From: Psammoneis japonica
Taxonomy: Eukaryota
Assembly (NCBI GenBank): GCA_008632985.1
Contig: QPGO01000029.1
Span: 384,874 to 448,873 of the forward strand
Reading direction: 5' to 3'
Length of the DNA: 64,000 nucleotides
Shown one piece after another: positions 4,637 to 54,040 of this stretch. A program made the position numbers and the translations under genes. Positions within the stretch are counted from its first letter, which is position 1; each line of letters begins with the position of its first letter. Under the pieces are notes generated by a model. The model was given only the letters and a program-made list of their open reading frames with translations. It did not search any database and was not told the origin of the DNA.

Positions 4637-4999
4637 GCAGGCTCCCTAGTCTCGTCATGTTCATACCGGTAGCTAGAATAGGAGACAACTTTGAGACGAC
4701 ATTGCGTGTGGCTTTTTTCAAAAGCAAAAATGAGAAATTCGGTGGGAAAGAACGGAACTTATGCGTGACTTCGGGACAGAGACAGCTAAATGGATAGCAC
4801 AACGCACAGTGACGTCAACTGCTTTTTTTGGCTTCCGCCCATCCACTGCTTTTTTCTTCCCCTCTTCCCCACCCGTGCGTGATGCAGACCTCCCATGCTC
4901 TCCAAAGCTGGCTTGCCCCTCTAATCAGTGTTTTGTGCTGAGGTCTTTTGTCTGAAGCACTTGCTCACAGAAGCTCAAGGCCCCAAGGCTGGGGGGAGG

Positions 5000-6650
5000 T
5001 CAGAAACCTTGTTTTGAGTTGGCCCTGGGACTGGCTCAGCTTGCCTCGAGCGCACACAATGCTGAAAATGTGAGGGGAGAGCAGAGCGATGAGAGGCGAG
5101 TTTGCGAGCTCACCCACCACCATTTCTTGCAGGAGATCAGCAGTGAGAGAAATTTGCATCAAAATCAAACCAATGCCAAGTGCCAGTTGTTGAACCAGCA
5201 AGTCAACATGTCACCAAAAAAAATGGAGTCCCACCGTCGGGGGCTTGTGCTTCCTGTCGACACACTTGCCTTGGTGAGCTGCTGTGGTGGCTGTGGGCTG
5301 CCAAAGGCATCAATGCAAACTACAAACCTGCACAATAACAGGTGCCTGCTGATGCCAAATGAAGAATTGTGCAAACCAAATGATTCACTCCAAAGGGTGA
5401 GATCATGAAACCGAGAGGTGAGAGAATGGCGACGGTGAGAAACCTCACTCACACCGAATGAGCTGCATCAGGTGTCAAAGCATCTTCTCTTCAATGCATC
5501 CAGGTTTCTTGCTCTTCCTGTGATCTGGATGTTCCAACACACTGCTGCTGCTCGCATCAATGTTCTGCTGGCCAGCTGGGGCCAGTTGGCATTCGGGAAA
5601 AACTGGCCTCTCTGTCGCGGAGATCAAATCATCACCAGGTGCACCTGTTGCTTTGCAGCCAATGTCCTGCAATTCACAGCAGCACAAGTTGGTGCACTGT
5701 CCATTGTCAGAACTGTCAACCACATCATTGAACAAGTGTGGCGCACCTTGCCCCCCCCCCCCCTCAAAAAAAAATGATCCGCCACTTGAGCACGATGAAT
5801 CCTCTCTCTCACAATTCCACAGCACGGGCCATTGGTCAGGTCCATGATCCAACCATTGACCATCTCAGGAGTCAAATCAAAGAACTCCATTTTGGGGCAA
5901 AACCACCTGCACATGGGGTCCGCATGTTCAACGTGTCATGGTGGAAGAAGAAAAACACTGGCTTCACGACAGCCGCATTGCAAATGATGCCATCTGCACC
6001 CATTGCGAGTCTGCAACAACTCATTTGAAATCCAGGATGATGACCAGTGTCAAGTTGCATGAGGGGACTGCACATCCCATTTTTGTCCACACCACAGACA
6101 GGACAATTGACCCTCAACTTCTTGCACAAATTGTCAACATTGTTCTTGTCCAGGGCCAGCTGCAACTCATTGCCCATTGACCCAATGGCACACTTGTCAT
6201 TCACATTCTCTTCACCATCTTTGTGTTGTCCAAAAAACAAACAACATGTTTTGCATTGCATCAAGGCTTGGCCTCCAACACATTCCCAAAATGCTTTGGT
6301 CCAGTGCAGTGCCTTCCAAGCATGCCGCACAATCTCAGAGATGATGCGCTGCAAAATTGTCATGGATGGACAACATCGGTGCAGCAGCAGACATGTGCTC
6401 AAGTGCTGCAGGACTCCACAGTTTGATGTCCTTGCATGCTTCTTTCATTGCATGGCATTTCCTGGTCCATGGTCCATGACACAGTTCCAGAGCTGATGGC
6501 AGCCCCTTGAGGCAGTGTGTGTGTTCCCACTTCTCACTTCTTCAACAACACTTGACATCGTGGCAGAGGTGTGGGTTGTCTGTCAACTGCCTTTCATTGC
6601 CATTGATCCACTGGACCATCTTTTTTCTTGGATTTCCAGTCATCTCTCAA
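5000..6650 (-). mobile_element. Degenerate unclassified dispersed repeat (family A), coding-like
   Basis: Shares recognisable sequence with 39500-39900, 46900-48330 and 49290-49400 (e.g. VLEHPDH / LLEHPDH / VLKHLDP peptides and GTTGAACCAGCAAGTCAA). TA- and CG-depleted. Boundaries approximate. Confidence 0.55.
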
Positions 6651-6989
6651 ACATCATCTTGGCAAGTTTTTCAAACTTGCCCCTGCACTTCCATGGCCAC
6701 TTCTGAGTTGTCATGTCATGTGGTGTGCTTGGCTCATGCACTTCAGTTTCATTCATGGTTGATGGTTGTTCTTAAGAACAGAGTGATGCCAGAACAAATT
6801 GTGGCTGGTTGCACCTCATGGCTCATGACATCTTCCAGATTTCAGGGATCTTTCACCCACATGGGTCAGAATTCTCATCTGACATCACAGACAGGAAATG
6901 CCTCTGTCATGCTTGAAGTCAAAACAGCCCACAATGGCCAGTGTAAACTTTCAAACTTCTCACCCTGCAGTGGTTCAGTTGTGAACTCT

Positions 6990-8113
6990 CCAAGCATGTC
7001 ATCAGTTGAACAATGCTGCCCTTCTTGATCTGGTCAGTGAAACAGAAATGCCGAGTGCCAATTGCTCTGTGGACTGCTTCCCAGCACTCCTGTGCCCATT
7101 CATTTCTAACAGCATGGCACTCTTGTTGTCCTGGCAAAAGACATTCTTGTCAATTGGACTCACCTGATGTTCCATGAACAACTTTGTGCACAGAATCATG
7201 GTCATTGCATCATTGACCCTGCAAGTTCAGCCTCTGTGCTGCTTCAGCAGGTGTGGAGCTTTTGGCACTTCAATGCAGCCTGCACTGCTCCATTGCCTGA
7301 GTCCACAATTCCTCCTGTGTGGCATTTAAAATCAGGGCACACTGCAAATGATGCACCCACATGTTCACACAACTTGAACACTTGGAGGTCCTTTGTGACT
7401 TCATTTCACATCTGGTTCAGGCACTCAATGCAACAGACTGGCTTTCCCCCCAGCCCTTCTTGGTTGGCTCTCTGACACATGTGCACAATGCTGCAACAGC
7501 AGGGTGTGCATCCATGCAGCCTCTCTTGGGTTCAAAAAGTCCATTGGACACCCACGCATAGAATGTTTTTGCTTCATCAGTCAGCAATCTTGTGCTGCCG
7601 GTGTCAAATGGGTTTTCTCCAGCTGGCATTGTGGCAGCATCTACACTCTTGATCTCTTCCAGGAGCTGGTTGATGATCTTGTGAATGCAGTCAGTCATGT
7701 CAACTTTCACCTTGCACTTGGTTGTGGCTCAAGTCCAGGGCCATTCTGAGGCAGTCGTGCTTTTCTTTCCTCATGTCACAACAACTTTGCAATGGCTTCC
7801 ACACATCTTGTTCAGCCAGCTTGGGAATTCGTTGTTTGCTTTTGGATTTGCATGGCTTGACAGAAGGTCATCCACATGGAAATGTGTGGTGTGCTGCTTG
7901 CCGTTGACCAGTCAATTGGCAACAAACAAATTGCGTGGGTTGAACTTAAACCCAATCTTCTCCAAGTCCTTGCAAATTGCTTGTGCCAGCACAGCAGAGC
8001 TGCAACCAACATGCCACACACAGCTCCAATGACTTGGACATGATGGAGGGCTCTCTTCTCCTTTTCCATGACCACACATGATGGTCCATGCAGGTTGGGA
8101 TCAATGCTCACCA
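6990..8113 (-). mobile_element. Degenerate Ty1/copia (CoDi-like) RT/RNase H relic
   Basis: Peptides CGMLVAALLCWHKQF, VKVDMTDCIHKII and QDNKSAMLLEMNGHRSAGK correspond to copia RT and RNase H motifs; many stops and frameshifts. Confidence 0.85.
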
Positions 8114-8114
8114 G

Positions 8115-10190
8115 TGCACCAGCAACCATGTTCCTGAAGTTGAAAGGAGCATTGAAACCATCAAAGAGCAAACTCAAGCCACTGCACACTGCCTGACATG
8201 CAAGAAGATGGTGCCAAAGTGGATGTGCAGGAATGCTGTGATCAAGAACACTGTCATGTCAATGTGTGCCCACAGCAAGAAGAAATTTCTGACATGTGCA
8301 ATCCACACACCATCATGCAATGAAGAAACCTCAACTGTGACAAGCACTTTGAGCTCACCTTTAGTGAATTTGTCCTTTCTCACATTGAGAACAACCCAAC
8401 AAACACCACAAACATGCATGGCATTGACAGCACACATCTGCAACCATGCTTTGATGTTCCCAAGGGTGGCCACCACCAGCCCACTGTGAACCTGCACATG
8501 GGCAAACTTCTGAATCTCTGTGCAAAGTGTGCTGCTGCACACCTGATTGACACACATGTGCAAGTGCTCAAGAAGATGGCCACAGCACAAGGCATCAAAG
8601 ATCATTTGAAATTTATGGGCAAATGCAGAGACAACCTGTGTGATGCTGGTTGGACTGCATGAGTGGAAAATGACAAAGACAAAAGCAATGGAGAAGATGC
8701 AAACAAAGACAAAGAAAACAAAGACTGTGCCAAAAATGTTGTGACCAACTCAGAAGATGACAACTGTGAAGACAAAGTGCTGGACTCTGGTGAAGAGTGC
8801 AAAGAAGCAAACAAGATCCTGGCCAATGGAAGATCCAGCCCTGATCAACAGCATGAGAGCAATGAAATCAAAGACACAATGACTGTGACAACACTGAAGA
8901 AAACAAGGACAGCATGGAGCCAGAAGAAGACACAAAGAAACCCAAGAGGAGACAAAAGATGGGAAGGAGAAAGACTGGCAGATGATTCAACAGCAATGAC
9001 TGGAAGAAGAGCCAGGTCCAGCAGTGCTTTTTTCATGCCACAACACACATTCAGAAGCACAAGAACACATCACAAGAGAAGAAAGTTTGATTTGCAGGAG
9101 TGGCAGAGACACTGCAAAAGAGAAGCACAAGCAGAACAGACTCAAACACTGTCACCATTTGCAAACAAATGTGAGCCCCAATCCAGAGGATGACATTGAG
9201 TGTGATGCAGAAACAGCAACGACACTGGCACAATTCATGTGCAAGCTTGACAACCAACTCCAATCAGGAAAGGGCATTTCCTTTGCCCAGCAGCATTTGC
9301 TGCACAGGGTCTGAAAGTGTTTGGCCAGAGTGTGACACCTCGGAGAAGGAGATTGGACAACTCCAGCCATGACAGTGTGTGTGTTTTGCACCAACATCAG
9401 TTGAAGACATGATTTTGACTGAGAGGGCCAAGGCTGTGATTGCCTTGATGTTCCCAATGGAGAAGCAGATGGTTGCACAAAATGACAAATGGTTCAAATG
9501 GAAAATTGAACAGAGAATGGCTGGATGAGGATGAATCAGCCAGTCCAATGGCATCATTGGAAGGAGTGCCAATGACATCCATTGTTGATGCTGTCAAAGA
9601 GCCTGATGTGATGAGCATGGATGTGCCAAACACGTTCATCTGGATGCTGGTCCTGGAACCCAACAAGGGTGAAACCTGGCTGGGCAATGACAAAGATTGC
9701 AGGAGTGATGTTTGACATGCCAGTGAGCATTGACTCCAACCTGCATGGACCATGTGTGGCCATTGAAAAGTGGAAGAGAGTTCTCCATGTCCAAGTCATT
9801 GAAGCCATGTGTGGCATGTTGGTTGCTGCACTGCTGTGGCACAAGCAATTCACAAGAACTTGGAGAAGATTGGGTTCAAGTTCAACTCATGCAATTTGTG
9901 CATCGCCAATTGACTGGACAATGGCAAGCAGCACACCACACATTTCCATGTGGATGACCTGCTGTTGAGGCATGCAAATCCAAAAGCAAACAACAAATTC
10001 TCAAGCTGACCAAACAAGATGTGTGCAAGCCTTGGTGAAGTCATCACAACATGAGGAAAGAAGCATGATTGCCTCAGAATGGTCCTGGACTTCAGCCACA
10101 AGCAAGGGCAAGGTGAAAGTTGACATGACTGGCTGCATTCACAAGATCATCAAACAGCTCCTGGAAGAGATCAAGAGTGTGGATTCTGCC
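8115..10190 (+). mobile_element. Degenerate Ty1/copia integrase-RT relic
   Basis: NHVPEVERSIETIKEQ (integrase), AQQHLLHRGLKVFG, SPMASLEGV...DVPNTFI and LHVQVIEAMCGMLVAALLWHKQF (RT). Confidence 0.85.
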
Positions 10191-10480
10191 ATGGTGCACA
10201 AAATCTTGAACAAAGCCATGTTGTGCTGTCAGATGATGTTGTCCAGTGTGCTGCATGCACTGACATGCTTCTTGGAATGCAGTCTCATGCTTGATTGACA
10301 CTTGATTGTCTTGTCAATTGCACACAGCATCTTAACTCAGAATGCCCAAACAATGTCAATGCAGAGGATTGCACCTTGTCTCTGTTCATTGTGTGTCTCA
10401 GGTGGAGTTGCTGTCATGTCGTTCCTCTCATGGGATTGGCACACATGTCTGGTGATGTCATTCCTTTCATGGGAGTGATG

Positions 10481-10577
10481 NNNNNNNNNNNNNNNNNNNN
10501 NNNNNNNNNNNNNNNNNNNNNNNNNNNNNNNNNNNNNNNNNNNNNNNNNNNNNNNNNNNNNNNNNNNNNNNNNNNNN
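10481..10577. other. Assembly gap (97 N)
   Basis: Run of N. Confidence 1.
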
Positions 10578-10599
10578 GACAAGCTTTTTGCCTGGTTTA

Positions 10600-12900
10600 A
10601 ATGCAAAAATGGCTTGAAATCCCTCATGTTGGGAATTCCAGCCTTGCAGCACAGTCTGAGTGCTTGCTCTGTGCTTGCAGCTTCCCTCTTGGTGCAGCCT
10701 GTGGCACCCTGTTCTGCCATTGGAGCCACAGCTCCAGATGATGCACTCTTGTGCTTCTTCTTTCTCTTTTTTTTTCTTCTTCTTCTTTGACAGCATGCTT
10801 GCATGTGATTTGCTTTCTTGATGTTCTTCAACACAAAGAATCTGGCTTGGTGCAAAAGCACACAGCCTGCTGACATCATTCACTCAAAACACTGTGACTT
10901 GTTTGCCAATCTTCTTGTCCAGCAGGCTGGGCTTCGCCCAGCACTTGGCCATCACATGTTGCACAGTGCTTGCTCTTAACATCCTTTAGACTGTGGATGT
11001 TTGCTGTTGTGTTCTCTGTTCCAAGCTTCACACACCCCATCCAGGCATGGTGCAGTCTTTGTCCAGGGTGTCCACTCCTGCATTTGTGAGCAGATTGAGC
11101 TTGGTCTTGGCTGGCCACACATTGCACACCAGCCTCCAGTTTGCTGCCATGCTGAGGGCAGAACCATTGTCAAGGATGATCTCATCCATCTCAATGTTGT
11201 TGTTGGCTTGGTTCATGCTTGTCTCTGGTCTTTCATTTGCCAGTTGCAACCTGTGGCATGCAGTGCTCCTGCTTTGGCTGGCATGGGTTGGTCAGTTAGA
11301 TCTGGCATTGTTGTTGATGGCTGCTCATGTTGTTGCCATCCACCAATGAGTTGTCATCATTGCCAACTTGTGTCTGTGCATGACTCTGTCTCTCAATGTC
11401 TGGCTTCCTTCCAGCAATCTTGAACCAACTGCTGTGCACAACGTCTTGTTTTTCATGCTTGCAGTCTGGGGACTTGTGATTGTTCAGTTCACCACAACAG
11501 CAACTCACCACATTTTCTCTGGTTGCTCTTCTGGGCATGGCTGTGGTCCTTTGAATTGTCAGACCAGTTGTTGCTGTTGTCGTCATTGCCACTTCTGTTC
11601 TTGTTGTCTTTTTGCTGATTGTTCTTCATCTTGCATTGGTTGCAAGGAGATTGTTGTCTTTTGGATGGCTCAACAGTGCATTGATTGCCTTCTTTAGAGT
11701 CTTTGGACAGGTGTCTTCACCCAGACCACATTCTCTCACAAAGATCTTCTTCAAGGCAGCTTGCAGCTCTTGCAGCAGCAACCATTGCTGTTCTCCATGA
11801 AAAGGCATGTCATCCATGTCTCAAACACTGACTCATTTAGTTCATCTTGAAGTGCAGAGTTTCCATCTTGGCACTCCTTGGCAGTGTGCACAAATCCATC
11901 TAACGCTCTGTCTTCCAGTCCTTCTTTTGTGGCATCTTGCTGATTCTTGATTCTTGAAAGGCAATTGTGTCTCATTCTCCTGTCACCTCACATCTAGAAT
12001 GTTTTTCTTCAGGGCCCCAGTGAGTGCATGGAACAGATGTCAACTTCTCATTGAGTTGGGTGTGAGGGATTGAATTGCTTTCAATGACATGATCAGATCA
12101 TCTCCAATGCTGGAGAAACTGGGATCAACTTGCATTCTCTGCTTTGTTTGCTTGATGTGCAGCAATTGTCAAAAATCTTTGCAAATGCAGGAGTTGTCTT
12201 GTTCTCTTTGAACTCTTTCACTGTTTCACAGTGCCTGCTTGGCTCTGCTTCATGCTTTTGTTCCAGCCATTTGTCCTTGCCCTCTTTCATTTGCAGTGTC
12301 ATTTGGTGTGTCCTGCAGCATCTTTTGCAGGCAGCATTGCCATGGACACTCTCATGGTGGGTTTCTTGGAAATGCAATCCTTGCATTCAATGTCCTCCAA
12401 AGACCTTGCCATGTGCATGCCTTGCTCACACTCCTTCTGTGTGTGGTGGATGAATGCAGCATTGCAAGCATCACTGTTTGGTGATGAAGGATGGAATTTC
12501 ATCTCAGGCTAAAAGTGCTTCTCAGTGTTGGTCTTCTTCTTTGGGTCAGAAGAGCTGTGACTCTTGTCACCTCTGCAACCACAACCTTGGCCTTGATTGC
12601 TTGTTCCACCACCTCCTCTCCCACTCATTGTGCAGGTGTTCAGCATTTCAACTGGCTGCATGCAAGCCATTGTTTGCAAGCACCAAATGCAGTGCTGGCA
12701 ATTCTTTGGAGTGAACATTGAACCGGCAAGCCATTGTCACCAAAAAGGAATCCTGCTGGGCTTTCTGTGCTGCTTGACACACTTGCTGTTCTTGTTTTGA
12801 CCAAAACCAGAGAACTCTTGTTTTCAGCAACTTTTTGTGTGATTTGCTCTCAATGACTTGTGGGCTTGGAGCCAGCTCTGTTGCTGCAGCCCACAGCAGC
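10600..12900 (-). mobile_element. Degenerate copia gag/protease relic
   Basis: Zn-knuckle-like SCCCGELNNHKSPDC and protease-like IILDNGSALSMAAN...LLTNAG. QKECEQGMHMARSLED is shared with the relic at ~40160. Confidence 0.75.
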
Positions 12901-13575
12901 TTCTCTTCTCTCACACTCCTTGTTGTTGCTCATTCTTGTGCTGCTTGTTGTTCTGTTCTTGACAGATTCTCACACCCTTGCAGCCACCAGACTCTAGACA
13001 CTGCACACCTCATGGTGGCTGGTCATTGTTGTCTTGTGCAAACATGCTCCCTCTGGCCTTTTTTGGAGCCTGGCTCAGGCCAACAACATGACTTGGCATT
13101 GCAGCTCATGGCAATTGGTTGTGGTGCACCTCATCTCAGACATCCCCTGGCCTGGGGCAACAGTTGGCAAAGCTGTGGCAAAGTTGAATCTGCCACTCAG
13201 CTTCATGCTTTTTCTAAGTTTTGGGGCCCAATCGAAAGCTGTTGACCAACAAAATGGAGATGCATGGCAAGTGGCTGCTCTCCTGGAGCATCTTGGTGAG
13301 ATTCGATTGCCGAAAACAACCAGAAAGTTGTGGAATGATTTTCATCCAGATTCAGGCAAGACTCTCATCGTCGTATGGTGAGCAGACTAGCTCGATCGCT
13401 TGTAGAACTGGGAACGTTTACAGATTGCGTTGCTCTAAAAGCGTTATCGCACAAGATCGTTTCAGAGTCTGCTTGTGATGTGCACTTTCCTTGCGGTTTA
13501 AACGACAGTTGTAAATGAATGGTCAGGCACGTGGGATAAGAACGGACGGAATGAAAAAATGACATGCTTGGAACA

Positions 13576-15432
13576 CTACTGGTTTACTGTGAAAACATAA
13601 GCGGATCCGGAATTATCGCCGTTTGCGTGACGTCGAAGGGCCCCAACTCCAACGACTCTTCCGTCTGCTGACAAGGCTACGGAATATCCAAATTCATCCC
13701 CTCCGGCTTCACCATTCAAAGGATCAAAAAGCTGATCCCACCTGTTTGTGTCACTGTAGTATCTAAAGATGTTAACTTGACCGGATTCCTTTAACCCGTT
13801 GGCATCATGCATGCTACTCCCGACAGCCAAGACATTTCCAGTTCCATTCAAAGATACCCGGATACCAAAGGCATCACCAGGCTGTTGCGTTAGTAGAGTT
13901 TGGCCGCGTTGGTTCCAAGTCGAAGTGGCCCGGTCAAGGTCATAAACCAAGACTCTCTCATCGATTCCATACGCACCTACAGCCATAACTAAACCACTGT
14001 CATCAAGAGAAACAGAAATTCCAAACTCCCCACCAATGATTTGCCCATTTATTGGATCGCCCAATGTATCCCAACTCGATGCAGAGCTGTATTCAAACAC
14101 TGACACCCTACCAGCGTTGCTTCCACTCAAGTATGCGCCAACGCAAACGATGTTGCCTGAGCTACTCAAAGAAACAGAGACGCCAAATCTTTCACCTTCA
14201 GCTTGACCATTTAGTCTCTGCCCGAGCTGGTTCCAAGATGAAGTACCGCGTTTGAATTGAAACAATTGAACAGAACCAGATTCAAGGCCGTGTTCAGTGT
14301 CATCCCTCCATGCTCCCACAGCAAGAATGTCGCCAGCATTCGACAGCGACACAGAAAAACCAAATTTACCCCAACGTTCTTGTCCTTCAAGGTCGCTGCC
14401 GAGTTGTGACCAATGGTCCGATGCAGAGTTGTACTCAAACACTCGAACATGACCCGCATTCTCTCCGCCACCGTCATTATCGTCGGCTCCAACAGCGAGT
14501 ATTGTGCCGTCGCCATTTAACGACAAGGATTCGCCAAATTGGTCACCAGGGGCTTGTCCAACCAATTCTTGCCCAATACGTGTCCATTTCTTGGTGGCTG
14601 GATTGTAACGATGGACGGAAACATAGCCAGGATTTGAAGAATTTGTAAACTGATTTGCGCCTACTGCCATGACATTTCCATCGCGCGACAGTGAGATGGA
14701 CCGGCTGAAATAGTCCTCAGCAGCCCTGCCATTCAAGACTTGACCGACGCGCTGCCACGGCAATACATCGGTGCCGCCCTTGCCACCTGAAGCTACTGCA
14801 AGCGAAACAGACACAACCACAGCAATAGCTACAATTACAATCCCAAGAACAATCAAAAGTTTGCAGAGATGCTTCCATTGCTCGTTGTTTGGTTGCGTTG
14901 CAATGATGTGAGCCACCGGAGCTTGGCGAAGATTGTCTTCGATGCGGGCAACTCGATCCTGAATTTCACCAAAATCGTCAGTGTTTGTGGACGGGGCTAG
15001 ACGAGCTTCCACGAGCCAGGTGTTGTCGTCACGGGGCACTGCATCTGAACTAGACTCTGCTGTTTCCGGTAAAGTAGAAATGTCTTCAGCATTCCCTCGG
15101 CGCTGAACTTCTCCATGACGGTTTCGTGCAAAAGCCCCAGGGACGACTTCTCCAGAGTGCGTGTTTGAGGCGGACTGTCGGCTGCGTCCTTCAGCTGCAC
15201 TCTGAAGCAGACTCAGGTTGCTCGAGTTCATCCTTGAAGAAGAGGCTTGATTTCGGGTTGGTATGGGGCGTGGTTGTTCTTCTCTTTCCACTCTGTCATC
15301 TTCTTGATCAGCAGTCTTCTTTCTCATCACGGCCAAAAATTTAACTAAGCGATTCATGTTTTCTCGGCACGATGTAACAACGCCGGCGTTATGGGCTATG
15401 CTCGAGTTTCGGTTTGTCGCGATGTGATTCAT
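13576..15432 (-). CDS. Single-pass membrane protein with an extracellular FG-GAP-like beta-propeller
   Basis: 618-aa ORF with a low-complexity N-terminus (VVPGAF, LVEA), one TM helix (LLIVLGIVIVAIAVVVSVSLAVA) and about seven repeats of FGxSVSLSxxGxxxAVGA. The start could be the Met at 15358. Confidence 0.9.
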   Translation of the reverse strand: MNHIATNRNSSIAHNAGVVTSCRENMNRLVKFLAVMRKKTADQEDDRVEREEQPRPIPTRNQASSSRMNSSNLSLLQSAAEGRSRQSASNTHSGEVVPGAFARNRHGEVQRRGNAEDISTLPETAESSSDAVPRDDNTWLVEARLAPSTNTDDFGEIQDRVARIEDNLRQAPVAHIIATQPNNEQWKHLCKLLIVLGIVIVAIAVVVSVSLAVASGGKGGTDVLPWQRVGQVLNGRAAEDYFSRSISLSRDGNVMAVGANQFTNSSNPGYVSVHRYNPATKKWTRIGQELVGQAPGDQFGESLSLNGDGTILAVGADDNDGGGENAGHVRVFEYNSASDHWSQLGSDLEGQERWGKFGFSVSLSNAGDILAVGAWRDDTEHGLESGSVQLFQFKRGTSSWNQLGQRLNGQAEGERFGVSVSLSSSGNIVCVGAYLSGSNAGRVSVFEYSSASSWDTLGDPINGQIIGGEFGISVSLDDSGLVMAVGAYGIDERVLVYDLDRATSTWNQRGQTLLTQQPGDAFGIRVSLNGTGNVLAVGSSMHDANGLKESGQVNIFRYYSDTNRWDQLFDPLNGEAGGDEFGYSVALSADGRVVGVGALRRHANGDNSGSAYVFTVNQ

Positions 15433-17143: not shown

Positions 17144-17148
17144 GGAAA

Positions 17149-23960: not shown

Positions 23961-23966
23961 TCAAGC

Positions 23967-39950: not shown

Positions 39951-39999
39951 ATGTTGGAACTCTGCATTGTGTGATCAACAGAGGAGGAGGTAGAACAAG

Positions 40000-42900: not shown

Positions 42901-45900
42901 CTGCCCAGCATCCACCATCCTGCATCCGCCATGCAGCAATGACCACCTGCCATCCGCCATCTGCCATCCACCATCAGCACCCACCATCCACAATCCGTTG
43001 TCCGCCATCCAACAACCACCATCTGCCATCAGCCACCAGCCATCCACCACCAGCCATTTGCTGTCTGCCATCCACCATCCACCATCTGCTGTCCACCATC
43101 CACCATCCGCCATCCACTGTCCACCATCTGCCATCCGCCATCCGCCATCCGCCATCCGCCATCCACCATCTTGCACCCAGCACCCAGCATCTGCCATCAG
43201 CAATCAGCCATCCACCACCCGCCATCCGCCATCCGCCATCCGCCATCCATCACCAACCATCAAACACCACCATCCGCCATCCGCCACCCAGCATTCAGCA
43301 TCCACCATCTGCCATCCACCATCCAGCATCCATCCTCCATCTGCCGCGCAGCATCAACCAACCACCATCTGCCATCCCATCCATCATCCGCCATCCATCA
43401 TCCATCACCCATCATCCACCATCCATCATCCACCACCCAGCATCCAGCATCCATCATCCATCATCCACCAACCATCATCCATTGTCCGTCATCCATCATC
43501 CACCATCCACCATCCACCATCCACCATCCACCATCCACCATCCACCATCCACCGCCCACCATCCGTCATCTGCCAAACATCACCCACCATCCATCATCCA
43601 CCACCCACCATCCATCAGCCATCAGCCAGCATCCGCCATGCACCATCCACCATCCACCACCCATCATCCATCATCTGCCACCCATCAAACACCACCCATC
43701 ATCCTCCATCCATCATCCACCATCTGCCATCCACCATCCATCATCCATCATCCATCATCCATCATCCTCCATCCATCATCCATCATCCATCATCCCTTGT
43801 CCCTCATCCATCATCCATCATCCGCCACCCATCAAACATCGTCCATCATCCATCGTTCATCATCCGCCATCCACCACCCACCATCCATCATCCATCATCC
43901 GCCATCCATCAAACACCATCCATCATTCACCACCCATCATCCATCATCCATCACCCTCCATCCATCATCCATCATCCGCCATCCATCATCCGCCACCCAT
44001 CATCCATCATCCGCCATCCATCAAACACCATCCATCATCCATCATCCACCATCCATCATCCATCATCCGCCACCCGCCACCCGCCATCCACCATTTGCCA
44101 TCCACCACCCGCCATCCATCACCCATCATCTGCCATCCACCCTCCTCCGTCCATCGTCCGCCATCCACCATCCATCATCCGTCGTCCATCATCCACCAAC
44201 CATCACCCATCATCCATCTCTGCCATCCATCAAACACCACCCATCACTCATCATCCGCCATCCACCACCCATCATCCATCATCCGCCACCCACCATCCAT
44301 CATCCACCATCCACCATCCATTGTCCATCATCCGCCATCCATCAAACACCATCCATCACCCATCATCCGCCACCCACCAAACACCATCCATCATCCATCA
44401 CCCGCCATCCACCGCCCATCATCCATCATCCATCATCCATCATCTGCGATCCACCACCCACCACCCATCATCCATCATCCGTCGTCTGCCACCCACCTTC
44501 CATCATCCTCCACCCATCATCCGTCGCCCGCCATCCATCAAACACCGCCCATCATCCATCATCCACACCATCCATCATCCGCCATCCACCATCCATCACC
44601 CACCATCCACCATCCACCATCCATCATCCATCATCTGTCACCCGCCACCCACCTTCCATCATCCTCCACCCATCATCCATCATCTGCCACCCATCAAACA
44701 CCACCCATCATCCGCCACTCATCACCCACCATCCACCATCCACCGCCCATCATCCGCACAATCCATCATCCGCCATCCACCATCCATCAAACACCACCCA
44801 TCATCCATCATCCGCCACCCATCAAACACCATCCATCATCCACCATCCATCATCTGCCACCCTTCACCCATCATCTGCTGTCCATCATCCACCATCCACC
44901 GCCCATCGTCCATCATCCATCACCTGCCATCCACCTTCCATCATCCTCCACCCATCATCCATCATCCGCCATCCATCGCCCGCCACCCATCATCCATCAT
45001 TTGCCACCCATCACCCGCCATCCACCACCCATCATCTGGTCCACCTTCCATCATCCTCCACAGATCATCCATCATCCGCCATCCATCAAACACCATCCAT
45101 CATCCATCATCCACACCACCCATCATCTGCCATCCACACCCGCCATCCACCATCCATCATCCATCATCCGCCACCCGCCACCCGCCACCCACCATCCGTC
45201 ACCCATCATCCGTCATCCTCCACCCATCATCCATCACCCGCCATCCATCAAACACCATCCATCGTCCATCATCCATGCCATCCATCATCCACCATCCACC
45301 GTCAAACACCATCCATCATCCACCATGCACCATCCGCCATCCACCACCCACCATCCACCATCCATCCTCCATCATCCGCCACCCACCAGCCATCACCCAT
45401 CATGCACCGTCCATCATCTGCCAGCCATCAAACACCGCCCATCATCCATCACCCGCCACCCATCATCCATCATCCATCATCCGCCATCCACCATCCACCA
45501 TCCATCCTCCATCCTCCATCACCCGCCACCCACCAACCATGGCCCATCGTGCATCATCCATCATCTGCCAGCCATCAAACGCCATCCATCATCCATCATC
45601 CGCCACCCACCATCCATCATCCATCATCCACCATCTGTCATCCACCATCCGCCAAACACCACCCATCATCCATCATCCATCATCCACTGTCCACTTGCCA
45701 TCATCCATCATCCGCCATCCATCAAACACCATCCATCATCTGTCATCCGCCACCCATCAAACACCACCCATCATCCATCATCCATCATCTGCCATCCATC
45801 AAACACCGTCCATCATCCGTCATCCATCATCCGCCATCCACCACCACCCACCATCCACCATCTGTCATCCATCATTTGCCACCCACCATCCACCATCCAT

Positions 45901-46730
45901 CATCATCCACCCATCATCCATCATCCATCATCCGCCATCCATCAAACGCCATCCATCATCCACAATCCATCATCCATCATCTGCCATCCATCAAACACCA
46001 TCCATCATTCATCATCCGCCATCCACCATCCACCATCCATTGTCCATCATCCGCCATCCACCACCCATCATCCACCATCCATCATCCACCATCCATCAAA
46101 CACCACCCATCATCCACCGCGCACCACGCACCATCCATCATCCATCATCTGCCACCCGCCATCCATCGTCCATCATCCATCATCCACCAACCACCTGCCA
46201 CCTGCCACCTGCCACCTGCCACCTGCCATCTGCCATCCACTGTCCACTGTCAGCATCTGCCATCTGACGTCCACCATCTGTCATCTGCCATCCAGCATCT
46301 GCCATCCACCATCCACCATTTGCCACCCAGTGTCCACCATCTGCCATCTGCCATCCACCATCACAGGCCACATGTGAGCATCAGAAGCTCAACACCCCAA
46401 GCAGCACAGAAGCTCAACTCATTCAAGTTGATGGCGCCATGACCACATGCTGTGGGTGAAGCTGTTCGTGGAGCACCAAGGCTGTCAGACTGACAAGAAC
46501 ATCCCACATCAGGGCAACAAGAGCACTGTGCTGCTGGAAGCTGATGGTGGGTGCAAGAGTGCCTGCAAGCAGTCAAGAGCATTTGACAATCGGCACTTCT
46601 TTGTTGCTGATCAGATCACAAAGGGCAGCCCAAGAGTGCAGCATTGTCCTGCCAATGAATGACGTGCGTTGAGACTTCACAACCAACAAACCACTGCAGG
46701 GCAAGAAGTTTCAAAAGTTGAGTGGTTGAC
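40000..46730 (+). mobile_element. Degenerate copia relic (gag-PR-IN at 40000-41950, RNase H end at 46370-46730) interrupted by a satellite; no RT motif recognised
   Basis: QKECEQGAHPARSLED, NGSALNAAG, EQSMQTIKEQ, then HQGNKSTVLLE, FFVADQITKG and KPLQGKKF. Same family as the 7-13 kb relics. Confidence 0.75.
41953..46363. repeat. ~4.4-kb degenerate simple satellite (CCATCCA / CCATCTG / CCATCCG / CCATCAT units)
   Basis: Direct inspection. Almost entirely C, A and T on the plus strand; I saw no TA dinucleotide. Confidence 0.97.
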
Positions 46731-46739
46731 TTCAAGCAT

Positions 46740-49700
46740 GACAGGAGCATTTCCTGTTCTTTGTGATGATGTCAGACAAGAGCTCTGATGCAAGTGGGTG
46801 AATGATCACTGATGTGAAACCAGAAAGGGCATTTTCAACCAAGCAGCGGCTCAACCAGCCACAATTTGTAGCTGCAAACAAATGTCGACCATTTGCAATG
46901 ATGATTTGTGTGAACCATGTGTGGGTTGCAACACAACGACAAATTTGTGGCCACCAAACTGCTGGTTGGATCACCAAGAGTGACTCGTGGGTCCATGCAA
47001 TGCAAGAGTGATGGGCACAGATTGCATCAGAGCATTGGAAGAGTGAAAGAGGTGGATTGGGAGCAACTGGAAGACACCAACTTTCAATCCACACATGCAC
47101 CAAGAAACCCTGGATTTGCAGGAGGTGTTGTTCACCATCAAGGAAATGAAGACAGCAGATCTTGGGGGAAGCCAGAGCTGTTGGGCCTGTGGTGGGGCCC
47201 ATGGCTGGGCAGACACAAGTCAATGGCACAAGCAAATGAAATGCCACAGTGGACTTTTGAAACAGTGGAGCACATGTGCACTGCTGCACCAATGCTCTCC
47301 ATCCATGATGATTGGAGACTGGCATGTAAAATTAAGAGATGAGCCAGCTGAGCTCCCAAAACCAAAGAATGTTGGCCAGCAATTGGAGGCCAAGCCTCAA
47401 GGCAAAGTAAAATGTGCTGTGATCAACAGAGTGACCCGGCAATGATGAGCACCTCAAGGACAGATGTGTTGCCAGATCACTGGGCAACAAATTGCTGTTG
47501 GCCCCAAGTGAGAGCAATGTTCATGCCCAAGTGAAAAGTCAAATGTTTGCCTGCCTGCTGCTGCACATGGCATGGACAAGAATGGGGCATGTGGTGCCCT
47601 CAGAAGCTCGTCAAGTGCCCCACTCCTGACATTGTCATGACTCATTGTGGGCTCATGAGGGACAATGATGGCATCATTTGTGATGTGAAGAACTTGGCAT
47701 CATTCTTCCACTGTGAATTTGTGCTTGCATTGAGATTGCAGGTGGTGCTGCAGAGAGATTCAGTTCTTTTGTTTGACTCCAGAGGCAACCAACAATTGGA
47801 CAATGGATCCGGTCAAGGATCAGGACAGTGAGCATAAAACAGAGAGACTCCATTGCAGCTGCATGGAGAATTTTGGTTTTGTGGAGTGCATTCATGATGC
47901 AACACACTTGTTTGATGACATGATCAATTGCTCTGACAATGGATGATGTGCTGGCTTTGGCATTGACTGTTTGACAGATGATTGCAAAGAGGTGGATTGG
48001 AAGCACATTGTTGCAAGCAACAGGAGTGTGTTGAAGCATCTGGATCCTGGGAATGCAGAGAACCCAGACGTGTTGAAGAGAAGATGTTGAAGATCATGAT
48101 GTGGTGGATTTGGTGACTCTTTTGTGTTCAAAATACACCATCACTGACCTCACTCAACTTTCAATTTGTCTCACTCTTTGAAGTGAATCATCTGGTTTGC
48201 ATGAACTGCATTTTGGCATTGGCAGGCACCTGTTTTGCATTGCAAGTTTGAAGTTCATTGAGGACTTCTGGACAAGCAAACCACAGCCACCAAAATGGCC
48301 AGGGCAAGTGCACTTCCTGACATCAGCTGCCCACCAGCAGCCCCTGCGTGTGTTTCTACACACCATGCTCTTGCGCTGATGTTGCCCTTTTCAGATGGCA
48401 TTTTGCTGGGTCCCTTGACACCCTTTTGGCCACTTCTGTTGTTGGCACACCTCATTTCAGCATGATGCACAACAATTTTTAGTGGAAAATGACTGGCATT
48501 GATGCCTCATGGCTCACATGCTTGTTGTCTTGTTTGGTGATTTTTTGCAGATTCAGTGCATTTTCTACACAGGATCCAGTTCAAATTCCATGCACTTCAG
48601 AAATGTCCACCAGAATGATCACAACATCTTTGATGCAAACAACTTCCATCTGCACCTGTCAGCCCACAGCGACTTCTTTTTCTCCTGCCAGCTGCTCTTG
48701 GGCATCCCTTGACAAAGACCATTCATTTGCTGCATGGGCCAGCATTTCTGCACAAGATTTGGTGTCAATTCCATGTGAGAATGACATTTCTTCCAACGTC
48801 CTTCTCATCACATCATTGAGTCTCCTTGTTTCATGCCTGCAAGTCCTGAACAACCCCTCTTGTCCTCACCAGCCTGCCAACCTCCCTCTGCTCTGAGTGG
48901 CGAGTGGTTTGTTTTCGTTCCTGCACATGCAAATGTGAAACCCAGCCATTCTTTGTTGAAGACAAGACCCATCCTTGGAAGCAAGGTTTTTCTTTTAGAG
49001 TTTGCGGTGACTTTGTGTCCTCTTCTTAACATGATTGTGCTTTGCTGTGGCAGTTTGGGTGCTTTGCATCCTGTCCAAAAGAAAGCAACAACATTTGTTG
49101 TTTCTGTGCAATTTCATCTCAACCACTTGTCTCTGCCAGTGCGCATGGCTGCAAAGTGGCATGTTGACTGGCTGATCACATGAACTTCTGCCACACCCCT
49201 TGCAGGGTGTGCCAGTGTGCCAGAAATGTGGATTGGCTGGTGCCAGTGTTGCTGGGCAAAGGTGCAACAGCACAATCAGGTTTGAGGCTTTTTTTGGGCC
49301 AGGGCAAGTGCAGCAAGTGGCACAGCAGGAAGCCTTGCAGGATTTCCCTTTGGCAACATTGACTTGCTGGTTCAACAACTTTGGGCACCTCTTTGCAGGT
49401 GCATCTGGTGACAGAACAACAACTGCTGACAATTCCCTGCTGAGCATCTGACATGCCAGTCAGTTGACAAACACCCACATCAAAGCAGAAGAGACATGTC
49501 TGCAAGGAGCATGAGTGCTGGTTCATTCAAGTCAAAGTGCAAACACAGCCAACACCCAGCATGATAAAAGGAGTCAGCAACAGATGACCCCCAAAACAAA
49601 AAAATGGGTGACATTGCAATCAACAATTGAAGTTGACATTGGGGGCAACATTGTGACATTTTGTGGCACCACAACAAATGTCTGTGCTGTTGCTGTTCAA

Positions 49701-52700
49701 CACTCATTGTCAGCAAGGACAAAAAGCATCTCTCTCAATTTCTTGCTGCTGCAGTTCACTCAAGTGTTGAGTGAAGAAATGGAGTCATGACTGCAACCAC
49801 AATGAGCAGAAAAAGAAATGAAGCATGTTGTTGTCATGCTCTCTTGAGAACCACTCCATTGCTCTTCACTCTTTCCATGTTTTCTCATGCCAGTGAGATG
49901 CTTTTTTGAGTCTTTCCAAGCAACTTGTTTGGTGCTGCCTGTTCAAAACCCGGCATTGTGGGTTGGAATTCTAAAAATTGGGCTCCGTGCACCATGGTGC
50001 CAGGAGCCATGAGTGTCACAGATGGAGCACTCATTTCTGATTTACCTGCAAACTTGACTGGGTGCTTCATGATGGGATTGGCACCGGGTGGCTGAAGCAA
50101 CAATGTCCAACATTTGGCTGTGGTGTCCATTGTGTTTTTGCCATGAAACTGTTGGTTCCAAAAGTGGCTGTTGATTCGTTCTTGCACACAAGCAGTTTTT
50201 TACAGTGTGCTCACAATGTTTGCATCATGGAGTGCACAAATGGTTGCCATCATTTTTGCCAGGGATGGGACAAAGTTTGAATGATCAACGGGTGTCGGCA
50301 ATGTTTGGACACATTGTTGGTTGGATGGCTTCCATCATGGGACTTTGTCATGGGATGGGATCTGCCATGGGGTTGCATTGGCTGACCACCAATCCACAAT
50401 TGAAATGAGAATGAGCAGGCATGGTGGAGGGAATTGTGGTGAGTCATGCCTTGCCAGATTTTGAATGACACTTTTTGCACAATTTGCACAAAAGCAAGGA
50501 AGTCAAGGATGAAAAGAGCCTTGTGCATCAGGCAACTCTTGCCAAATTGCTGTTGTGCCAATGGCTGTCAGCACATTGGACAACCCAGAAAACAGAAACA
50601 AGAAGAGAATGATCAACAGCAACAAAGACAACAGCTGCCCTGAAGCAACCACCCAAAATGATGGACAAAGCAACCATTTCCTTGTTTTACAAAGTGCCAT
50701 TTTGAGCATGAACCCAAGTCATTTGAGTGCATCTCCAAGAATGGAAAGAATCCACAAAGGAGTTCTGACAGACACACACCAATGCAGAGAGGACTTGCAC
50801 CTCATCAAACAGCACATTTTGGTGGACAGCACCAAAATGCCACAAAACTTCATGGACCTGCACAGCACCATCTTGAATGGGATGTGGAGGCTCTCAAGAA
50901 TTTGAAAAACTCTGCAGTGCAAGAAACAAGTGAGCCACAAGAAGGGTTCAAAATTTGAGCTTGCCCCTCTTTGCCACAGCTGTTTTGCTTTTGGGAATGA
51001 CAGCCATGGTTGTTTGGGTTGTGTTCAACCAATTCTGATCAGACCCCACATCCATCAACAATTGAAACATGGCTGTGTCCACCTTGTTTTCTCCACTGGG
51101 AGTTGTTGTTTGATGGCAACTCTCAAAATTGAAGTCCATCAAGAAGAGATGGAGGTGGTTTCCACTGGGGACCTTTCTTGCCATCATGTTTGCATGTGCC
51201 ATTGCACCCCTCTTGTTCTTGGGCACTTTGCTCCATGTCAATTGCAAGTGATGCACTTGTTTTCAATGGCCATCACCAAGACAGGGTTTGTGGGAAGCCT
51301 CAGAGCATGCTGTCCTTTTGGGCTGCTTGTTGGGTGTCATGTTGCATGTTTGGGCAGCATGAATGCTGTGACTTGCACTGTGCAGGGATCATTGCTCAAG
51401 TTTGATGGCAGTGGAAGCTTTGCCACATGTGTGTGGGACTCCTCATGTTGCAGGAAGATGTTTGGTTGACATGGCTGCCATTTGCTGGCCAGCCAACAAA
51501 CACATTGCTGTGCAAACATGCTGCCTCAGTGGCACAAGACCCCCCCAAGAATGCATGGATGCTGTGAACATGACAGATTGTGCATCAACCAGCACTGTTG
51601 GTGCACGTTGCAATGTTTTGCAGATGTGACATCTCACTTGCTGCAGAGCTGTTGCTTGTGCAGTCCAACAGACATGCATGACTGACAACCAGTGGTGAGT
51701 TCTTTGTTGTTGCAGCATCTCAAAATGTGCTGCAAAGACAAACAACTGTGGGTTTCAAGCTTGGTCACCAATCAAATGCTCAAGCATCGCACTGGGTGCC
51801 AAAGCCACCTCTGCAAGTTTCTTCCAGATTTTGCTGCAAGTGGCAGGCATTTTGCTCTCAACTGTGATCAATGCCCCTCTTGTGTTCAATTTTGTTGGCC
51901 AATTCAGGACTCATGCAGTGCACACTTTTAAAAAAGATGGTTTCATTCAAATGGGGCATTCATCCATTGCTTGCAAAGTTTTTTGAGGCATGACCCCATC
52001 CACAGAAGGAGGACCAAAATCAGTTGCCGCAAAATTGAAACAGATCAACAGAGGCAGCCTCTGAGGCAGCTCCAGATGACAAATGTCAAAATGGCAGCCA
52101 TCACTGCAATCAAAAGAATTGTTGTTCAAGGTGGTGGCAACTCTTGTTTGGAGACCCTTGGGGTGAACAAGAGCTTGGCAGAAATTCAGAAAGAACATGG
52201 AAGCAACCAAAAAACAAGGCACATGAAGTGACTGAAAAAAACACACACGGTGTCTCTCCCATGAATGACAGCACACAAAATTGACAGCACCAAAGCACAA
52301 ACAAGAAAACACACAAAGAGATGGGGTTGTCCACAATGAAAGTGACTGTGCGAAGCCACAATCATCTTGTGATGAAACCAAACAACTTTCAAATGAAAAA
52401 AGAAAAACAGATGGTTCCATGCAACTGCAAAGTCAAAGAGGGCGTTGCGGAGCGGCAACAGTGGTGTGCTGCACTGTGGTGCTGATGTTGTGCATGGGCT
52501 GCACATGCATGCTTGAGTCAGCATTGATCGACGCATTGCCAGAACAACATCAAATGCCAGCTGATGTTGTTCCTCTTGTGACAAAATGCACCCCTTTGTG
52601 ATTGGAGACATGTGCTCTTGTCACAATTCTGTGTCATCATTGAAACATTTAACATTCACTGAAAGCCCAAAAATTTGAGCTCTGCCGGGTGGAGACAGAA

Positions 52701-54040
52701 TTGCCTGGTGCAAAAAACTGCACAGAAAATCTTGCTGGATGGATTGCAAATCACCCTTGGCTGGAACAGGCCTGAAGTTGGTCTTGCAGGCCACATCACA
52801 TGCACTGTGGTGATCGCACAGAAAGCACACAAATTGTCATTTTCTTGCATTTTGCCAAAAAATCATCTTTTCTTCACTGCTGGGGTTGCTGTGGGGGTCA
52901 CACAGGTGTGTGGGGTGCACAGCATTGGTGCATGGGCAGGCCACATTGACCAGGGGCACAGAGCACAGGACAGATGGAATGACTCAAACAAGTGCAAGCA
53001 CAGGGCACATGCAAGGTGGAAAGGGGGTGGTGGTTTGCAGCAAATTTTCAGGGCATGTCAGCAAAGCTGGTCTGCTTGAGATGTTCTGCTGGTGACAGCA
53101 CAGCTGATGCTGTGGAGACCTTCCAGCCACACTGCTGGGAGGAGATTCCCCAAAACCAAACACTTGCCTTTGACCAGCCCCCAAAACAAGCTCCTCTTCT
53201 GTTTGCACACCAACAGCACAGTCCATTTGGCAATTTGGTGGTGTGATGGACAGAGGTGCTCAGATGAGGTGGATTGGCTGGGTCAAGGATGGGCTCACAA
53301 GTGGTTGTCCACTTCCTGCTCTTTTCTTGCTTCCTTTTTGTCTGACGTGGTGAGCTGTGTGGCACTGCCTTGGCCCCGAATGGCATGTGTGGTCATCTCA
53401 GCATCTCATGATGCTGCAATCATGTGGCACTGCATTGCTCTTTGTTTTCTCCTCCTCTTTCCATTGGCACACAAAGCCAGAACAGGAACTTCTTCTTGTT
53501 TCCACTTTGTTTCTGTGCACTCTTGCCACATGTGTTTTTGCTGCTCTTTCTCAGGTTTCTCTGCTCTTTTGTTGAGAAGTTTGTGGGAGGTCTGCACTGA
53601 CTAAAAAAAAAACACAGAGTGCTGCTGGCACATGTCAAAGAAGGGTGTGTCCCTTGGGGTGTCCCTTGGCTCTGGGAGAGAGCTCCAAAAGGGGGACAGA
53701 AATTGTGGCAGAGCCATCTTCAGTCTGCTGCAAGCAGCTGCCTCCTCGAGAGCCAACATCTCTGCTCTGGGCCTCAAATCAGGTGGCTTGAAAAGAGAAA
53801 CCTGAGATTTTGATCCAAAGAGAGCACAAGCACCATTTCAACTGTTGCATGATGACACCACCAGAGAAAATGGGTGGAAAGGGCAGAAGCAACAAAGCTG
53901 GAGGTGGCACGCTCGTCTTTGCCAAAAAATTCTTTTCCCACAAGAACAAAAGAGCTCCATGTTCCCCTTGCCTCATTGCCATTGCAGCACTTGACTGCTG
54001 CATTGAGCTTGTGAGTGGCAAGCCCATCAGGGAGACACAT
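46740..54040. mobile_element. Degenerate unclassified repeat-derived block (family A copy at 46900-48330 and others)
   Basis: TA/CG-depleted, with homology to 5000-6650 and to ~33200; no intact ORF. Confidence 0.5.

Follow-up and report, generated by a model that had tools for sequence, protein, structure and literature searches.

Blocks of repeats almost devoid of TpA in the diatom Psammoneis japonica point to TpA-directed hypermutation of inserted DNA

Introduction

A hypermutation restricted to TpA steps of integrated viral DNA has been reported in the chlorarachniophyte Bigelowiella natans (Mettrop et al., 2026 preprint, bioRxiv 10.64898/2026.01.13.699255), and it is the described system closest to the pattern analyzed here in the diatom Psammoneis japonica, where repeat blocks and part of a Copia retrotransposon have lost their TA dinucleotides within a window of 64,000 nucleotides (GenBank assembly GCA_008632985.1, contig QPGO01000029.1, positions 384,874 to 448,873 of the forward strand; the coordinates given below are those of the window). 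According to the main text of the preprint, 231 of the 302 new substitutions in accumulation lines of B. natans lay in an integrated nucleocytoplasmic large DNA virus (NCLDV) and a virophage; all but one of the mutations in the viral regions were A>G or T>C, those all fell on TpA, and the TpA mutations appeared only in some of the lines. The same text describes an enrichment of reverse transcriptase (RT) and DDE domains among TpA-depleted coding sequences, proposes an ADAT2-like adenine deaminase as the agent, and cites DNA activity for a few ADAT2 proteins. It nowhere uses the words "diatom", "TTAA", "flanking", "context", or "trinucleotide".

A preliminary description of the present DNA, made from the letters of the sequence, had proposed a genome-defence mutator acting on TpA in transposons, opposite in direction to the repeat-induced point mutation (RIP) of fungi. 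The enzymes of RIP are cytosine methyltransferase-like, and such a step cannot give A:T>G:C changes. The tRNA A34 deaminases work in a fixed context, U33-A34, in which the edited A34 always follows U33; the substrate context of Escherichia coli TadA is U-A-C, and early base editors derived from TadA favored YAC (Y, pyrimidine; R, purine). Diatom transposons carry cytosine methylation laid down by DNMT5 (PMC9998398).

Loss of TpA in the repeat blocks

The DNA in question forms block 1 (4800-13370), with almost no TA throughout and almost no CG from about 5460, block 2 (24254-36590), and blocks 3a (38500-41951) and 3b (46363-54040, with a sharp end at 54040), the last three being almost without TA and CG. 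Four stretches of these blocks (5001-13250, 24251-36250, 38501-41950, and 46363-54000; 31,241 bp in total) were pooled, 19,700 bp of pooled host stretches served as the control, and expected dinucleotide counts were calculated from base composition. The pooled blocks contained 115 TA against 2,209 expected (observed/expected ratio, o/e, 0.052) and 217 CG against 1,711 expected (0.127), together with 3,583 TG (1.88) and 3,634 CA (1.83), while the host stretches showed o/e ratios of 0.50 for TA, 1.00 for CG, 1.24 for TG, and 1.19 for CA. TpA is depleted 20-fold in the blocks, CpA and TpG are doubled, and pyrimidine-purine steps make up the same share of the blocks (0.242) as of the host stretches (0.244), an equality that is predicted if TA and CG became TG and CA by transitions alone.

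The change in composition is abrupt. The last dense TA lies at 4795 and the first dense TA returns at 54042, inner borders fall near 13370, 15900, 36590, and 38500, and the TA ratio switches from block to host within tens of bases, regardless of element type. The observation of TA-free repeat blocks is confirmed: the near-absence of TA and abundance of TG and CA in transposon-type blocks beside normally composed genes, which the preliminary description had reported and regarded as confined to the blocks, correspond to a TA o/e of 0.05 against 0.50, and its limits of 4810-54040 match the edges of dense TA. TG and CA outcomes are interleaved without strand runs, both in the window blocks and in the metagenome copies L048 and L077 treated below, and no single-strand tracts were seen in a runs test on the order of TG and CA in four blocks (z from -1.5 to +1.0).

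Read support for the TA-free sequence

Four sequencing runs of one sample were available, and contigs of run X1 were compared with the window over 10600-30599. Seven TA-free pieces (11226-12443, 12417-13725, 15939-16955, 24225-25555, 26006-26745, 27224-28395, and 29053-29651) were reproduced by X1 contigs at a k-mer depth of 66-81 with 0-2 differences. By region, the contigs in block 1 (11226-13725) had a depth of 68-81 and 0-1 differences, those in block 2 a depth of 66-76 and 0 differences, and the contig at 15939-16955 a depth of 67; the host-gene contig at 13697-15965 had a depth of 66. The X1 contigs agree with the assembly and carry no TA at the block sites, and the base-calling artefact that the preliminary description had considered is unlikely because contigs of single-copy depth reproduce the TA-free sequence.

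An artefact of sequencing or assembly would suppose that modified bases of heterochromatin were miscalled, an idea favored by the unrecorded platform of the runs and by the possibility that they are the assembly's own data. Its probability is close to negligible: the blocks are recovered in contigs built on exact 31-mers, at depth 66-81, the same signature occurs in several unrelated metagenome assemblies, strand-specific miscalls would leave a mixed consensus rather than clean TG or CA, and the changes produce coherent Tyr>Cys/His replacements in protein frames.

Polarity of the change in a Copia element

A Copia element at 17135-24253, on the plus strand, shows the direction of the change. 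Its interior (17426-23965) encodes gag, protease, integrase, RT, and RNase H in five shifted frames; Pfam identified the RVT_2 domain (E 5.5e-29), and a hidden Markov model (HMM) of 16 homologous polyproteins covers 18376-23934 in those five frames. The interior has a TA o/e of 0.28, a CG o/e of 0.95, and a GC content of 0.565, and the loss of TA is uneven along the element, with a ratio of 0.86-0.93 in the first 750 bp, 0-0.3 from about 17885, and a partly spared patch at 22135-22885. The 5' long terminal repeat (LTR; 17135-17425, 291 bp) is TA-rich and apparently untouched, with 15 TA and 21 CG, whereas the 3' LTR (23966-24253, 288 bp) holds 7 TA and 21 CG.

The two LTRs are 95.5% identical and differ by ten substitutions, all of them transitions with A/T in the 5' LTR and G/C in the 3' LTR. 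Seven of the ten oppose TA in the 5' LTR to TG or CA in the 3' LTR and none the reverse (direction 7:0, p 0.016), and the other three are A>G outside TpA. By site, 7 of 15 TA but 0 of 21 CG have changed (p 8e-4). The two LTRs of a new insertion start out identical; these now differ 7:0 at TA, and the change therefore took place after insertion.

The proteins tell the same story. An alignment of 43 polyproteins of at least 1000 amino acids gave 38 columns with Tyr in most of at least five homologues, at which the Copia element has Tyr 11 times, Cys 11, His 7, Phe 7, and another residue twice. Thus 18 of the 38 conserved Tyr are now Cys or His, whereas other majority residues are kept in 625 of 780 cases (p 6e-11), and Arg in 49 of 61, Gln or His having replaced it just three times. 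The replacement of Tyr by Cys or His with retention of Arg therefore indicates that TAY became TGY or CAY while CpG codons stayed nearly intact; the base preceding the 18 changed codons was uninformative for the outcome. Both the polarity from TA to TG or CA and its timing after integration, as put forward in the preliminary description, are borne out by the LTR asymmetry and the Tyr codons.

Other copies carry traces of the same change. Among 40 of the 656 family variants in the reads, four have CA or TG in the window where 57-89% of the family depth is TA, three have TA in the window where 79-90% of the family depth is TG, and six adjacent pairs oppose CA and TG. Contig depth summed over the Copia family reaches 22,000-132,000, compared with 66 in single-copy DNA; the figure does not count copies directly but suggests hundreds of them or more. 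In five paralogue pairs that touch the blocks, CA stands against TG in 48 of the 92 adjacent double mismatches (9/12, 7/19, 8/15, 8/13, and 16/33 per pair), as would be expected if an ancestral TA or CG had resolved independently in each copy.

An independent spectrum from a metagenome Copia family

Among the best 150 relatives of the RT, a few fragments from metagenome assemblies lack Tyr and contain 8-12% Cys plus His, with Cys or His at the conserved Tyr of the motifs DSVYSG, IGNAYLE, KALYGL, and YVDD. Four entries in public collections (P0154, P0205, P0201, and P0153) are hypermutated Copia RT fragments of this kind, with no or almost no Tyr and 8-12% Cys plus His, and such Tyr-less, Cys- and His-rich entries could offer a cheap screen of metagenomes for the signature.

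At the DNA level, 80 metagenome loci from several unrelated assemblies carry a Copia family that is 64-70% identical to the element of the window. Their TA o/e ranges from 0.77 to 0.01, with four loci below 0.1 and ten at 0.1-0.3; TG plus CA climbs as TA falls, and CG stands at 0.55-0.64 in the TA-free loci. Over 2,900 bp, copies L048 and L077 contain 60 and 3 TA and 104 and 112 CG, respectively, and 46 of their 180 differences are TA>TG/CA, with 0 in the reverse direction; likewise, L049 and L048 differ by 21 such changes and 0 reverse. A consensus was built from 32 copies. Against it, L077 has changed at 17 of 36 TpA positions (equivalent to 17 of 18 TA steps) and at 8 of 643 other A/T positions, and its CpG changes (6/91) are like those of unmutated copies, while in five copies 0 of 30-36 consensus TpA positions have changed. 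The pooled copies have changed at 133 of 1048 TpA positions and at 331 of 17497 other A/T positions.

For a polarized count, A>G changes on both strands were scored against 14 little-mutated copies. The two most mutated copies changed A to G after T at 84 of 168 sites, as against 14/392 after A, 17/405 after C, and 8/444 after G (39/1241 for these three), and seven intermediate copies changed at 142/524 sites after T and 100/4033 after other bases. Sites polarized with an outgroup gave 18/20 at TpA as against 22/70, 21/53, and 24/77. The A>G excess at TpA is thus 12- to 30-fold over other contexts, and the little-mutated family members keep their TA (o/e 0.5-0.77), in line with what the preliminary description had expected of a polarized spectrum and of family consensus sequences.

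The spectrum bears on an origin through error-prone synthesis or biased repair in heterochromatin, including Pol eta-like synthesis at WA (W, A or T), GC-biased gene conversion, and a bias of mismatch repair. We give this explanation a slight probability: the A:T>G:C changes are confined to repeats, which pair and recombine, and 3 of the 10 substitutions between the LTRs are A>G at sites other than TpA, but A>G is no commoner after A (0.026-0.036) than after C or G, and reaches 0.27-0.50 after T. Since ApA is not raised, the WA motif is excluded, and with it the Pol eta candidate of the preliminary description. Gene conversion would favor every weak-to-strong change rather than TpA alone, and tracts so close to saturation would be hard to reach at the error rate of a polymerase.

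The family also speaks to a TA-poor composition inherited by the elements, or to selection against TA through a TA-cutting nuclease or avoidance of stop codons. The Copia interior is indeed GC-rich (0.565) and coding, and some TG states are common to most of the family depth. We consider the probability of this explanation very slight all the same, as the little-mutated metagenome members retain a TA o/e of 0.5-0.77, five copies have none of their consensus TpA changed, conserved Tyr have become Cys or His in a way that breaks proteins, the elements carry frameshifts, and one LTR has lost TA while its twin has kept it.

A third possibility is that RNA or cDNA of the element is hyper-edited from A to I after U and then reverse-transcribed, new copies being born TA-free. 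At the first 19 ancestral TA sites, the outcomes in L048 and L077 are the same throughout, which would mean that a partly mutated element was copied, and the three sites at which 79-90% of the family depth has the same TG may reflect inheritance from a mutated master. At the remaining ancestral TA sites, L048 is mostly intact and L077 is also changed, a pattern suggestive of hypermutation in steps and by tracts, the element being copied between steps, or else of a chimeric assembly. Editing before insertion is at odds with LTRs of a single insertion that differ 7:0 at TA, with the TA-free state of a heptamer satellite, single-copy relic DNA, and block margins, and with sharp block borders that are not tied to element type. 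The substrate of ADAR is double-stranded RNA, in which it edits after A as well and favors a 3' G, whereas here ApA is not raised and the 3' order is C = T > G > A; moreover, according to the main text of the preprint, the mutations of B. natans appear in DNA that is already resident, in vegetatively growing cells. We attach a small probability to this route. ADAR-type editing as such was rejected on the non-identical LTRs and the different neighbor preference.

Context rule, tracts, and relation to CpG decay

The TA steps that survive are not a random sample. Among 114 surviving block TA with context, 68 are YTAR, 45 mixed, and 1 RTAY, while the host stretches have 107, 329, and 205, respectively (p 2e-25). 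Relative to host, the density in blocks is 0.80 for TTAA, 0.47 for TTAG, and 0.35 for CTAA, and no GTAC, GTAT, ATAT, or CTAT survives in the blocks. In the metagenome family, the loss of TA is 0.77 for RTAY, 0.59 for YTAY, 0.47 for RTAR, and 0.40 for YTAR, with TTAA lowest at 0.30. By 3' base, the A of TpA has changed in the intermediate copies at rates of 0.415 before C, 0.414 before T, 0.19 before G, and 0.13 before A, that is, 90/217 before a pyrimidine and 52/307 before a purine (p 7e-10). The flank also bears on the outcome in this family, with TG:CA at 88:53 for YTAY and 16:39 for RTAR (odds ratio, OR, 4.0). The preferred site is 5'-TAY-3', by two- to three-fold, which would read equally as 5'-R-T-A-3' if thymine were the target, and TTAA is all but immune. 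The changes are grouped in patchy tracts with sharp inner borders.

This symmetry keeps a thymine chemistry in play, in which a TET/JBP-type modifier marks T in R-T-A of silenced repeats and the resulting 5-hydroxymethyl- or 5-formyl-uracil mispairs with G at replication, giving T>C. The signature is strand-symmetric (3,583 TG and 3,634 CA, with no strand runs), and all the context results can be read equally as T>C favored after a purine. 5-Formyluracil is mutagenic towards A:T>G:C, and the hydroxymethyluracil of dinoflagellates is enriched at TpA. On the other side, the TAY rule matches the tRNA adenine deaminases, we know of no precedent for a thymine oxidase that prefers R-T-A, and the authors of the B. 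natans preprint, in its main text, favor adenine deamination, though without proof. We consider thymine chemistry unlikely. The claim of A->G at TpA in the preliminary description accordingly stands as a transition at TpA, but its assignment to adenine does not, because TpA is its own complement and A->G is not separable from T->C.

The loss of TA is distinct from the decay of methylated CpG, as the preliminary description had also argued. TA has been lost and CG kept in the Copia interior (TA 0.28 against CG 0.95), the LTR pair, the mutated metagenome copies (L077, 3 TA and 112 CG), and the block margins at 4800-5460 and 36000-36590, and a short single-copy stretch to the left of the Copia element (15900-17134, with 3 TA in 15908-17134) is TA-poor with part of its CG kept. 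Since TA was lost without loss of CG in these places, the TpA process is faster than CpG decay and independent of it, and the Copia interior and L077 led us to reject CpG decay as the sole cause. The old blocks underwent both processes.

Nature of the old blocks

The blocks share diverged dispersed repeats among themselves, including repeats common to blocks 1 and 3a, and summed read depth is raised in places; the blocks are repeats. This dispersed similarity and raised summed depth suggest that they are transposons; their class is likewise a matter of interpretation. Pfam found a transposon domain in 0 of 208 open reading frames (ORFs) of at least 75 amino acids in the TA-poor blocks, and the two sub-threshold matches are not of transposon type (CFAP47, E 0.009; zf-C2H2_2, E 0.001). 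A tblastn search with 43 Copia polyproteins found no Copia similarity outside the Copia element. In the old blocks, the HMM built on 16 of these polyproteins yielded only 10770-11003, with E 0.57 and a negative score. The translation of a relic ORF at 8177-8749 on the minus strand carries an RT-like "FHVDDLL", and this ORF has no relative among the longer proteins and no usable match in the Atlas. No terminal inverted repeats of the kind that delimit DNA transposons emerged from an inverted-repeat search of the window, and no target-site duplication was found flanking the Copia element. The retrotransposons and DNA transposons that the preliminary description had placed in the old blocks are thus not confirmed, nor is its mutated target-site duplication.

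Within block 1, an inverted duplicate has its left arm at 7632-8111 on the plus strand and its right arm at 9723-10191 on the minus strand, with 86% identity; 9 of 12 adjacent double mismatches between the arms oppose CA and TG. A gap of 97 N (10481-10577) lies between these arms and the next relic. Blocks 3a and 3b are separated by an array of the heptamer CATCCAC (41952-46362, plus strand; about 630 copies over 4.4 kb) with zero TA, 69% matches, and a CG o/e of 0.76. Spurious open frames arise in the array, the longest of 1,498 codons.

Proposed mechanism

What has been observed directly is the signature with its polarity and context rule, its confinement to repeats, and its recurrence in independent data; the process behind it is very probably real, post-insertional, and targeted to repeats. 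As a whole, these observations are best explained by a repeat-targeted TpA hypermutation through an ADAT2/TadA-like DNA adenine deaminase that serves genome defence, an account that we regard as probable on balance; its single element of an adenine deaminase as the agent, suggested by analogy, is put forward tentatively and at less than even confidence.

Under the deaminase account, a process at the DNA level would strike inserted repeats and spare adjoining genes. Each TA step would undergo one transition, to TpG or CpA, on either strand, in tracts of about 1 kb or more that would be driven almost to completion, at a rate far above that of CpG decay and without requiring it. The preference would be for 5'-T-A-Y-3', with TTAA largely spared. 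The old islands have lost about 95% of the TA expected from composition, after which the slower deamination of 5-methylcytosine (5mC) in CpG to TG or CA would have removed CG. The agent may be a zinc-dependent deaminase of the tRNA-A34 (ADAT2/TadA) type acting on DNA of silenced chromatin, converting A to inosine, which would be read as G, and the likely effect would be genome defence through the destruction of Tyr codons and other TA-bearing signals. The edited A after T and the preferred 3' pyrimidine match the known preference of ADAT2/TadA, a match of resemblance only.

Several points weigh against this account. No gene for a deaminase was seen by Pfam on the ORFs of the window, and A>G at T-A-Y equals T>C at R-T-A on the other strand, which makes adenine and thymine indistinguishable as the target. 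A test of flank against outcome in the window (YTGY plus RCAR versus YCAY plus RTGR) gave an OR of 1.11 (p 0.08), which is not significant. The evidence in this diatom is comparative throughout, drawn from existing sequences rather than from de novo mutations, and LTR polarity was assigned by parsimony and by the direction of the whole signature rather than by an outgroup at those sites. The copies of the metagenome Copia family share ancestry, which inflates p-values over copies. The sample of the runs is possibly that of the assembly itself, on an unrecorded platform, so the read check is not fully independent. The lack of transposon domains in the block ORFs also counts here.

A wider conjecture is that diatoms and chlorarachniophytes share an old DNA adenine deaminase, common to the stramenopiles, alveolates, and rhizarians (SAR), with a 5'-TAY-3' preference, guided to silenced repeats and integrated viruses and acting in kilobase tracts. 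This is speculative and rather doubtful; if true, the enzyme would stand beside fungal RIP and APOBEC as their A:T>G:C equivalent and would be related, as a natural enzyme, to the adenine base editors of the laboratory.

Other features of the window

The host gene for an ammonium transporter (2909-4645, minus strand) provided a control in which TA and Tyr are used normally; its best named relatives are from Bacillariaceae sp. (61%), followed by Pseudictyota and Thalassiosira, and unnamed relatives reach 70%. These relatives place the organism among the diatoms and not with Bigelowiella. About 180 bp are duplicated in tandem, at 93% identity, within 2237-2600, in TA-rich intergenic DNA (26 TA in 250 bp) upstream of the ammonium transporter region. 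A second control, the FG-GAP repeat gene (13579-15432, minus strand), sits between the blocks and is normal in TA and CG. At position 13585, at the end of the FG-GAP ORF, the reads carry T/C at a TA step, the window having TA and the alternative being CA; the CA variant makes up 43% of X1 depth and is present in the one X2 contig, and it may be an allelic TA>CA change of the same kind in genic DNA. Pfam identified further host genes encoding ZW10, a Laminin_G_3 protein, HA-domain proteins, a PPR protein, and an AP mu subunit.

The margins at 4800-5460 and 36000-36590 are TA-free yet CG-rich (30 CG in 36000-36562). These could be inserts of younger age, or else the TpA process overshoots the CpG-depleted zone by a few hundred bases towards the host side. 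In block 2, a palindrome of 30 nt with a perfect stem (GAGCAAATCTCCACC.GGTGGAGATTTGCTC type) is present in three copies within 460 bp (25549-26009), with a summed read depth of 1,600-3,600 at the site against 66 for single-copy DNA, and it may belong to a family of miniature hairpin repeats.

Comparison with known systems

When compared with fungal RIP, the present process is alike in being a post-insertion, repeat-targeted set of transitions that wrecks transposon genes and leaves a dinucleotide signature with sharp borders. In contrast, RIP converts CpA to TpA and leaves repeats TA-rich and AT-rich, while here TpA is lost and TG and CA are made. The preliminary description had called the process opposite to RIP, and the 20-fold depletion of TpA and the polarized changes from TA to TG or CA agree with this. 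The deamination of 5mC gives the same TG and CA products and has taken place in the old blocks (CG o/e 0.13); however, it cannot remove TA, and the Copia element (CG 0.95), the mutated copies (0.55-0.64), and the LTRs (7 TA changed and 0 CpG) kept their CG. ADAR and APOBEC resemble it in being deaminase-driven, in disabling mobile elements, and in producing clustered transitions, but APOBEC gives C>T or G>A rather than A:T>G:C, and, unlike in ADAR editing, the changes here came after insertion and also affect DNA that is not of retroelements. With TadA, ADAT2/ADAT3, and the TadA-derived editors, the shared traits are an edited A after U or T and a 3' pyrimidine like that of U-A-C and YAC. The natural substrate of the tRNA wobble deaminases is tRNA, whereas activity on DNA is limited to a few ADAT2 proteins, as cited in the main text of the preprint, and to evolved editors.

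The closest likeness is to B. natans. As described in the main text of the preprint (bioRxiv 10.64898/2026.01.13.699255), the mutations there are also almost exclusively A:T>G:C, fall on TpA to give TpG or CpA depending on the strand, and affect foreign or inserted DNA only, with normal rates in the adjoining DNA. The preliminary description is thus sound in substance, but its view of the process as undescribed does not hold, a TpA-only A:T>G:C hypermutation of integrated foreign DNA having been reported in that alga. In the full-text literature, with most subscription journals outside its scope, this preprint was the only account of a TpA-directed process that we found, and no report of one in a diatom was found.

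The two cases differ in several respects. The host there is a chlorarachniophyte, which is a rhizarian, and here a diatom, which is a stramenopile; the NCLDV region there is 1.8-fold depleted, according to the main text, whereas depletion here is near-complete over repeat islands of 8-15 kb; and de novo mutations are available there, against comparative evidence here. The 3'-pyrimidine preference, the tract pattern, and the relation to CpG decay, which do not figure in the main text of the preprint, have been worked out here.

If the interpretation is correct, the targeted A:T>G:C hypermutation of invading DNA would not be a quirk of one rhizarian alga but would also occur in diatoms, one of the most important groups of primary producers in the sea, as well as in a Copia family from the environment. 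It would further mean that old diatom repeats escape homology-based annotation because their Tyr and other TA-bearing codons have been rewritten, and it would point to an adenine- (or thymine-) editing enzyme for chromosomal DNA, of relevance to genome defence and base editing. As a second and far more saturated example, it would allow the target rule, the tracts, and the independence from cytosine methylation to be read. To a process known from one preprint, P. japonica thus adds a new case, which is much more saturated and comes from a lineage of a different supergroup.

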